DNA of 510 nucleotides from Escherichia coli (lineage in GTDB: Bacteria; Pseudomonadota; Gammaproteobacteria; Enterobacterales; Enterobacteriaceae), in assembly GCF_003334255.1 (NCBI RefSeq), contig NZ_QOWU01000228.1. The stretch is one strand, 5' to 3'. Below are positions 1-510 of the stretch, piece after piece; within the stretch, counting starts at the first letter, position 1; every line of letters starts with the position of its first letter. The notes below the pieces were generated by a model. That model searched no databases. It was not told where the DNA came from and was given only the letters and a program-made list of their open reading frames with translations. The position numbers and the translations under genes are program-made.

Positions 1-138
1 GGCCTTGAACTGAAAGCGCCTGTAACTGATGACATCAGCAGAGCACTGGCTTTTGCCATTAAGTGGGTGGCGGTCGGTGTTGCTGTGTCCCCGATGCTGT
101 ATGGGCTGGCAAAACTGGTCATTGCGTTGAAATCGTGA
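1..138 (+). CDS. 3' end of an unidentified ORF (5'-truncated by the window); C-terminal 45 aa with a hydrophobic, possibly membrane-associated tail
   Basis: Frame 1 is the only + strand frame open from position 1 (frames 2 and 3 hit stops within the first 30 nt). It translates to [45 protein letters not shown] and ends at TGA 136-138. The stop sits immediately before the RBS of the next gene, giving operon-like packing. No family recognised; it does not resemble the C-termini of lambda R or P22 gp19 endolysins as I recall them. Confidence 0.4.
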
Positions 139-152: not shown

Positions 153-284
153 ATGTCAGACAAACTCATAACGCTGGCGAAGATCCTCTGTGTAATTGTC
201 GGCATTTCATTTTCACTAATGCTGGTTGCTCTTTTTCTTTCCATGGCCTGGATGATGTTGTCTTCGTCGGGGCTGCTGGGGTGA
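153..284 (+). CDS. Small single-pass membrane protein, 43 aa, function unknown (lysis-cassette-associated)
   Basis: ATG 153 preceded by a strong SD; stop TGA 282-284. Translation [43 protein letters not shown]: short charged N-terminus (D, K, K), then about 26 uninterrupted hydrophobic residues, then a short Ser/Gly tail, consistent with an N-in single transmembrane helix. The track ORF 63-284 shares this frame, but its first 30 codons start at GTG without an RBS and overlap the frame-1 ORF, so ATG 153 is the likelier start. Confidence 0.6.
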
Positions 285-295
285 ACATAAACCGA

Positions 296-510
296 ATGCT
301 TTCCGCGTTTATCGTTATTCTGCTGGTGGCCTGTGGAGCGCTGTGGATGGCAACAGACCATTACCGTGATAACGCGATTACCTACAAAGCGCAGCGCGAT
401 AACAAAGCCAGTGAACTGAAGCTGGCGAACGCAACCATTACTGATATGCAGGTGCGCCAGCGCGATGTTGCTGCGCTCGATGCAAAATACTCGAGGGAAT
501 TAGCCGATGC
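296..510 (+). CDS. Rz: Rz-type inner-membrane spanin (i-spanin), N-terminal part; 3'-truncated by the window
   Basis: Frame 2 from ATG 296 reads [71 protein letters not shown] and is still open at the window end. N-terminal hydrophobic signal-anchor ([18 protein letters not shown]) followed by a charged, helix-prone periplasmic region. From [14 protein letters not shown] to [13 protein letters not shown] it closely matches lambda Rz as I recall it (memory, not a database hit). Missing from the ORF track, presumably because it has no stop inside the window. An alternative in-frame start is GTG 281. Confidence 0.85.
493..498 (+). promoter_or_regulatory. Probable Shine-Dalgarno (GAGGGA) for the embedded Rz1-like gene
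   Basis: GAGGGA at 493-498 lies inside the Rz reading frame a few nt upstream of ATG 507. Lambda has AAGGAG at the equivalent position ahead of the Rz1 start (recalled). Confidence 0.4.
507..510 (+). CDS. Rz1: Probable start of the embedded o-spanin (Rz1-like lipoprotein) in the +1 frame of Rz; only the start codon is inside the window
   Basis: ATG at 507-509 is in frame 3, i.e. +1 relative to Rz. It spans the D and A codons of the Rz motif ELADA, which is where lambda Rz1 starts (MLKLKMM...) as I recall it. The coding body lies beyond the window, so the signal peptide and lipobox cannot be checked. Confidence 0.5.

Follow-up and report, generated by a model that had tools for sequence, protein, structure and literature searches.

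A lambda-type Rz1 start codon very probably nested within Rz in a widespread lysis module of Escherichia coli prophages

Is an ATG in the +1 frame of an Rz-like gene the initiation codon of a second, embedded lysis gene, or is it a by-product of coding for Rz? The question arises in a 510-nt stretch of Escherichia coli DNA (the window, by which we mean the whole stretch analysed), where an ATG close to the 3' end had been described as the start of Rz1, the o-spanin of a two-component spanin, at the position equivalent to that of lambda. The window ends 1 nt after this ATG, and the body of Rz1 was read from public records that are identical to it or related. All 510 nt are found at 100% identity in the Escherichia phages PhiR12_1, PhiR12_2, PhiR12_2_star and PhiR12_5, for which a literature search gave no relevant paper. 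E. coli chromosomal prophages match it too, with 100% identity in several hundred genomes and with 477 records at or above 99%. In 1,032 of 5,426 E. coli genomes a single place covers 80% or more of the window, most of the exact matches being chromosomal prophages; against these 1,032 genomes, full-window matches occur in just 7 of the 273 matching phage records.

By homology, the host gene is a lambda-type Rz. Its product shares 72% identity with lambda Rz and hits PHROG 13 ('Rz-like spanin') at 3.6e-74, its Cys96 and Cys150 align with C99 and C152 of lambda Rz, and the part lying in the window encodes an N-terminal hydrophobic stretch, taken as the transmembrane segment, and the predicted first coiled-coil region. 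The gene starts at GTG 281 or ATG 296 and runs 244 nt past the window. PGAP, which names the product 'lysis protein', uses the start at 296; this is probably a mis-annotation, with GTG 281 as the likely true start. The upstream start is favoured because one related locus (L067) has ATT at the position equivalent to 296 and ATG-GTG upstream of it. The homologues of Rz begin M-N-R-V-L, and the aligned codon in the window is ATA (287-289), indicating that the ancestral Rz ATG is gone; a start at GTG 281 would give Rz a cytoplasmic Arg, like that in the MSR of lambda. The GenBank record of PhiR12_1 begins Rz still further downstream, at window position 347, and the transmembrane segment would be lost with that start.

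The elements from which an Rz1 start was proposed are located as the preliminary description had placed them, in both coordinates and frames (Table 1): the ATG is in frame 3, the +1 frame of Rz, whether the latter is read from ATG 296 or GTG 281. The Shine-Dalgarno (SD)-like GAGGGA is formed by the Rz codons TCG-AGG-GAA (Ser-Arg-Glu). Pairing of its GAGG with the 3' end of 16S rRNA is predicted at -6.4 kcal/mol, which falls in the best 5% of positions across 800 nt; the spacing of 10 nt from GAGG to the ATG is longish, and the SD is weaker than that of lambda. A frame-3 TAG stands two codons upstream of the ATG, and the Rz1 ORF therefore cannot begin earlier. Over the Rz part of the window, counted up to position 543, frame 3 contains nine ATG, GTG or TTG codons; of these, only 507 and the in-frame starts within its ORF give an open frame of more than 28 aa (61 aa). 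The ATG by itself is weak evidence for an Rz1 start. ATG trinucleotides and purine-rich runs are common, and most annotations of these genomes list only Rz; both would fit a reading in which the ATG and the GAGGGA are chance features of Rz coding and the +1 ORF encodes nothing. The sequence downstream of the window bears directly on that reading.

Table 1. Features of the Rz/Rz1 region within the 510-nt window
Feature	Position	Strand	Evidence
5' part of Rz (i-spanin)	281..510	+	translation, lambda Rz identity, PHROG 13, PGAP
Shine-Dalgarno-like GAGGGA for Rz1	493..498	+	anti-SD duplex, conserved codons
TAG stop, frame 3	501..503	+	frame-3 translation ...NTRGN*PM
Rz1 (o-spanin) ATG and first base of codon 2	507..510	+	homology, lambda alignment, PGAP, intactness

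When the sequence is extended downstream, frame 3 remains open from 507 for 61 codons in 13 public loci that carry the exact window. In PhiR12_1 (locus L001) the product is a protein of 61 aa, MRELKMKLFALTLPLVVSACGSTPPVQVPCVKPPAPPAWIMQPAPDWQTPLNGIISPSESG, encoded at L001 4507-4692 inside Rz (4296-4754) and ending, stop included, at the window-equivalent position 692. Its stop codon (L001 4690-4692) lies 62 nt before that of Rz (4752-4754), so Rz1 is fully embedded in Rz. The same arrangement holds in all 43 distinct non-lambda Rz sequences, in which Rz1 starts at offset 211 of the Rz CDS (frame +1) and ends at offset 397 of 459; lambda is equivalent. The product also has the features expected of an o-spanin. 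A PROSITE-like (PS51257-like) lipoprotein pattern matches MRELKMKLFALTLPLVVSAC, residues 1-20, and comprises a positively charged N-terminus, a hydrophobic core with a mean Kyte-Doolittle value of 2.2 and the lipobox V-S-A-C20. Cys20 is followed by GSTPP, the mature part is Pro-rich, with 11 Pro among its 42 residues (26%), and the ORF ends inside Rz, as had been anticipated. Neither of the outcomes named beforehand as counting against an Rz1 start, an early stop in the frame or the lack of a signal peptide and lipobox, was thus seen. VVSAC is present in every Rz1 homologue. A second Cys lies at residue 30, followed by PPAPP at 33-37; this Cys30 is found in 42 of the 43 distinct non-lambda variants, the remaining one (L056) having Ser. 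Lipoproteins without Asp at position +2 after the lipidated Cys are sorted to the outer membrane by the Lol rule, and this destination is predicted for Rz1, in which +2 is Gly or Val, not Asp, and +3 is Ser. Profile and pairwise searches concur, with Pfam Rz1 (PF06085) matching residues 20-60 at E=8.1e-22, PHROG 3198 ('Rz-like spanin') at E=2.5e-31 and lambda Rz1 in BLASTP at 69% identity and E=6e-26. A Pfam LysC match to Rz1 was insignificant (E=0.052). NCBIfam gave no hit to Rz, to Rz1 or to either of the small ORFs upstream of Rz (see below), which shows a library without a matching model and is not evidence against a gene.

The position proposed for the start is indeed that of lambda: in the alignment with lambda (J02459) the ATG occupies the same column as the lambda Rz1 ATG (GCCGATGCG here, GCTGATGCT in lambda), with SD-like purines and an upstream TAG in the same places. 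The lambda ORF used for this comparison gives Cys20, Cys29 and Pro32-36, in agreement with the published numbering (PMC5295617), and the equivalence therefore holds. The two genes share an embedded +1 frame, a start within the ELADA codons of Rz and a TAG upstream with one codon between. Their products share a length class (61 aa here, 60 aa in lambda), the lipobox Cys20, a second Cys for an intermolecular disulfide and the core CVKPP..PPAWIMQP.PDWQTPLNGIISPSE. They differ in one extra linker residue after Cys20 here, which puts the second Cys at 30 rather than at 29 as in lambda; in PPAPP here versus PPPPP in lambda; in Ser or Asn here versus Arg59 of lambda, near the dispensable C-terminus; and in the weaker SD match, GAGGGA here versus AAGGAG in lambda. 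Lambda Rz1 is 25% Pro, with Cys29 and P32-36; one position of its P5 stretch tolerates Ala, and it remains functional when cut back to residue 55 (PMC5295617). The Ala of PPAPP falls at the very position of the P5 stretch that tolerates it, and the residue that is Ser or Asn here corresponds to the Arg59 that forms a salt bridge with Rz E150 in lambda.

Using 80 related loci from viral contigs together with lambda and three annotated records, we obtained 44 distinct Rz coding sequences, all 44 of which carry the +1 ORF, 60-61 aa long and with a lipobox. With seven further E. coli chromosomes containing the exact window added, the 13 exact-window loci all encode an Rz1 of 61 aa and an Rz of 152 aa; downstream of the exact window they differ slightly, giving five Rz1 variants, every one of them intact. 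The gene-within-a-gene architecture of an intact two-component spanin, as first proposed, is thus supported by a whole Rz1 ORF in the 13 exact-window loci and the 44 distinct Rz genes. The variation within Rz points in the same direction: third codon positions are variable at 14 of 62 sites in the overlap, as against 53 of 90 outside it (Fisher p=1.2e-5), or, by segment, at 39 of 70 before the overlap, 14 of 62 inside and 14 of 20 after it, and their mean pairwise diversity is 0.198 before, 0.057 inside and 0.209 after. These comparisons of sequences indicate that both overlapping frames are under purifying selection. The reading of the ATG and GAGGGA as chance features of Rz is effectively refuted by an ORF that is open for 61 codons, matches Pfam Rz1 at 8e-22, has a lipobox and is intact in every locus examined, by the suppression of synonymous-site variation of Rz in the overlap alone (p=1.2e-5), and by a PGAP annotation, in E. 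coli strain TC_EC10, which calls Rz1 and not Rz.

The codons around the start are also conserved. Asp71 of Rz, whose codon contributes the A and T of the ATG, is encoded by GAT and never by GAC in 84 of 84 loci; AGG-GAR is the same in all 83 loci tabulated, and the Arg codon within the SD is AGG, a rare codon that Rz uses at just this one of its 18 Arg positions. Nine loci, representing three distinct Rz sequences (L037, L031 and L039), have TAT in place of the upstream TAG, and the ATG, SD and body of Rz1 are unchanged in them. The TAG is removed by the replacement of Ala with Ser at Rz codon 70 (TCC for GCC), and an upstream ATG then starts a +1 ORF of 75 aa. Longer upstream +1 ORFs of this kind (75 aa in L037, L031 and L039; also one in L047) were considered as pointing to a different start and rejected, being due to the loss of the TAG or to an unrelated ORF, with the Rz1 ATG and body the same.

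A genuine Rz1 could also start downstream of 507. In such a case it would begin at Met6, the ATG at the window-equivalent positions 522-524, 15 nt downstream and outside the window, and the ATG at 507 would be a by-product of the GAT-GCG of Rz, arising automatically wherever an Asp encoded by GAT precedes Ala. Such a precursor would have 56 aa (MKLFALTLPLVVSAC...) and would mature into the same lipoprotein. All homologues, and lambda too (MLKLKMM), keep Met6, and a signal peptide of MK plus a hydrophobic core is still plausible from it. We nevertheless regard a start at Met6 as unlikely. The predicted anti-SD pairing is only -3.0 kcal/mol at 522 (32nd percentile) versus the -6.4 at 507, the corresponding lambda Rz1 values being -8.3 and about 0. 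The rare AGG that makes the SD for 507 is invariant, and the GAT is never GAC in the 84 loci. The substitution of Met1 by Lys in lambda Rz1 abolishes lysis, so downstream ATGs are insufficient in lambda; signal-sequence mutations such as this one were classed as abolishing translation or processing (PMC5295617 Table 3). Moreover, local RNA structure at 507 is no stronger than in shuffled sequences: the predicted fold of the 101 nt around the start has -25.5 kcal/mol, weaker than the shuffles (z=+1.2), with no structured element, and at most it suggests that the Rz1 initiation region is not occluded. The start at 507 is thus strongly favoured over that at 522; a dual-start device, in which Met1 and Met6 together tune the dosage of the o-spanin, is conceivable but unlikely. 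Together, these comparisons make it very probable that an intact lambda-type Rz1, the o-spanin of a two-component spanin, is initiated at ATG 507-509 and lies wholly inside Rz in its +1 frame.

Existing annotations record this gene unevenly. In strain TC_EC10, PGAP places the 'Rz1 family lipoprotein' WP_071606003.1 at exactly the coordinate of ATG 507. This protein, one of the Rz1 variants that follow the exact window, occurs on 907 contigs, and the same 90% cluster bears the names 'Lipoprotein Rz1' and 'Spanin outer membrane subunit' of Traversvirus. The Rz1 proteins of Stx-converting lambdoid phages (Traversvirus and relatives) and of E. coli prophages belong to one 90%-identity protein cluster, with no difference of substance from the Traversvirus-type Rz1; the PhiR12_1 variant is the 907-contig variant apart from four residues. 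The exact PhiR12_1 variant is absent from a collection of 15 billion proteins, because the nested gene is uncalled there. We considered whether it might be an unusual protein and rejected this in view of the four-residue difference and the under-calling of nested genes. Of the nine E. coli records inspected, eight have Rz alone ('lysis protein') in their PGAP annotation; TC_EC10 has only Rz1 and no Rz, and the PhiR12_1 record has a truncated Rz and no Rz1. Gene callers disallow fully nested genes, and this is why Rz1 is missing from the annotations. Rz1 itself is already known as a textbook feature, and the locus adds no new biology beyond the lambda paradigm; the value of the finding lies in the correction of annotations, in which nested Rz1 genes are routinely missed.

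The genes around the pair are those of a lysis cassette. In the matching records the order is a 71-aa class II holin, a YdfR/DUF1327 gene, a 177-aa lysozyme and a 60-aa ORF, followed by a 43-aa ORF, Rz, more small ORFs and the terminase. We take the holin to resemble the pinholin of phage 21 and the lysozyme to be of the SAR type; the N-terminus of the latter is weakly hydrophobic and Gly/Ala-rich. The upstream part of the cassette had been called non-canonical, and this is true only in so far as two small ORFs are inserted between R and Rz, with the holin and endolysin genes present further upstream; the insertions being small, the upstream part is that of a normal holin, endolysin and spanin cassette. 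With Rz1 confirmed, this widespread E. coli prophage module has a complete set of holin, endolysin and two-component spanin genes. The downstream part had in turn been described as probably functional. Here, intactness and constraint were observed, and function is what the two of them suggest; the residues needed for spanin action (Cys96 and Cys150 of Rz, Cys30 and the Pro-rich region of Rz1) are present.

Whether 'functional cassette' is too strong for the source genome depends on the state of its prophage, which could be defective or cryptic, with the pair intact but unexpressed or no longer selected. Most exact matches are chromosomal (1,032 genomes at 80% or more coverage), and cells in ordinary shaken laboratory culture lyse without spanins, as lambda Rz/Rz1 mutants show, which leaves room for such decay. 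Moreover, a strong terminator-like hairpin (L001 3890-3922, 79 nt upstream of window position 1) directly follows the lysozyme gene and stands between R and the small ORFs upstream of Rz; it has a 14-bp stem, AAAACCCCG...CGGGGTTTT, followed by a T-rich tail, and would part Rz/Rz1 from R unless late transcription is antiterminated. Lambdoid late transcription, however, is Q-antiterminated and reads through terminators, and would pass this hairpin. Further, the identical sequence is present in deposited phage genomes with MG1655 and E. coli C as listed hosts, which implies propagating phages; the holin, endolysin and terminase genes flank the pair in normal order; and the dual-frame constraint shows selection across the lineage. 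We therefore consider a cryptic, unselected pair to be very unlikely.

The two-component spanin reading places the pair in a known mechanism. Lambda Rz, a type II protein of the inner membrane, has coiled-coil periplasmic domains; Rz and Rz1 form disulfide-linked homodimers via C99 and C152 of Rz and C29 of Rz1, and the spanin complex crosses the periplasm and fuses both membranes once the endolysin has removed the murein (PMC5295617, PMC6139136). By analogy, ribosomes would initiate at GAGG-N10-ATG in the late transcript, from which Rz would be translated too; the 61-aa Rz1 precursor would be exported and receive its lipid at Cys20, signal peptidase II would cleave it, and Rz1 would then dimerise via Cys30 and bind Rz at the C-terminal end of its periplasmic domain. 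Once the murein had been destroyed by the pinholin-type holin and the SAR-type endolysin, the Rz/Rz1 complex would fuse the inner and outer membranes and so finish lysis. Kongari et al. 2018 (PMC6139136) surveyed 528 two-component systems, of which 182 are embedded spanins. The LysB/LysC pair of P2 (overlapped) and PseT.3/PseT.2 of T4 (separated) follow the same logic of an inner-membrane subunit and an outer-membrane lipoprotein (PMC6139136), whereas Rz1 here is fully embedded.

Two small ORFs together form the insertion between the endolysin gene and Rz. The first, of 60 aa (L001 3956-4138), starts 45 nt before the window and has its tail at window positions 1-138; it has a C-terminal hydrophobic segment, belongs to PHROG 1115, for which PHROG assigns no function, and is found in 59 of the 84 loci, with a mild excess of variation at third positions (19/20/32 over the three codon positions). 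The second, a very hydrophobic ORF of 43 aa at window positions 153-284, lies directly upstream of Rz and has the strongest SD of the window (GGGAGGA, -11.3 kcal/mol). It belongs to PHROG 4906, again with no function assigned, and is present without stops or indels in 76 of the 84 loci; its variable sites fall evenly on the three codon positions (21/18/22), and in some variants the start codon is ATA rather than ATG. Its putative product could tentatively be seen as a small, uncharacterised membrane protein that is coupled in translation to the spanin genes and serves as an extra component of the lysis cassette (e.g., by modulating the spanin or the pinholin), an idea to which we give rather little credence. 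The TGA stop of the ORF (282-284) overlaps GTG 281 as GTGA, an arrangement typical of translational coupling.
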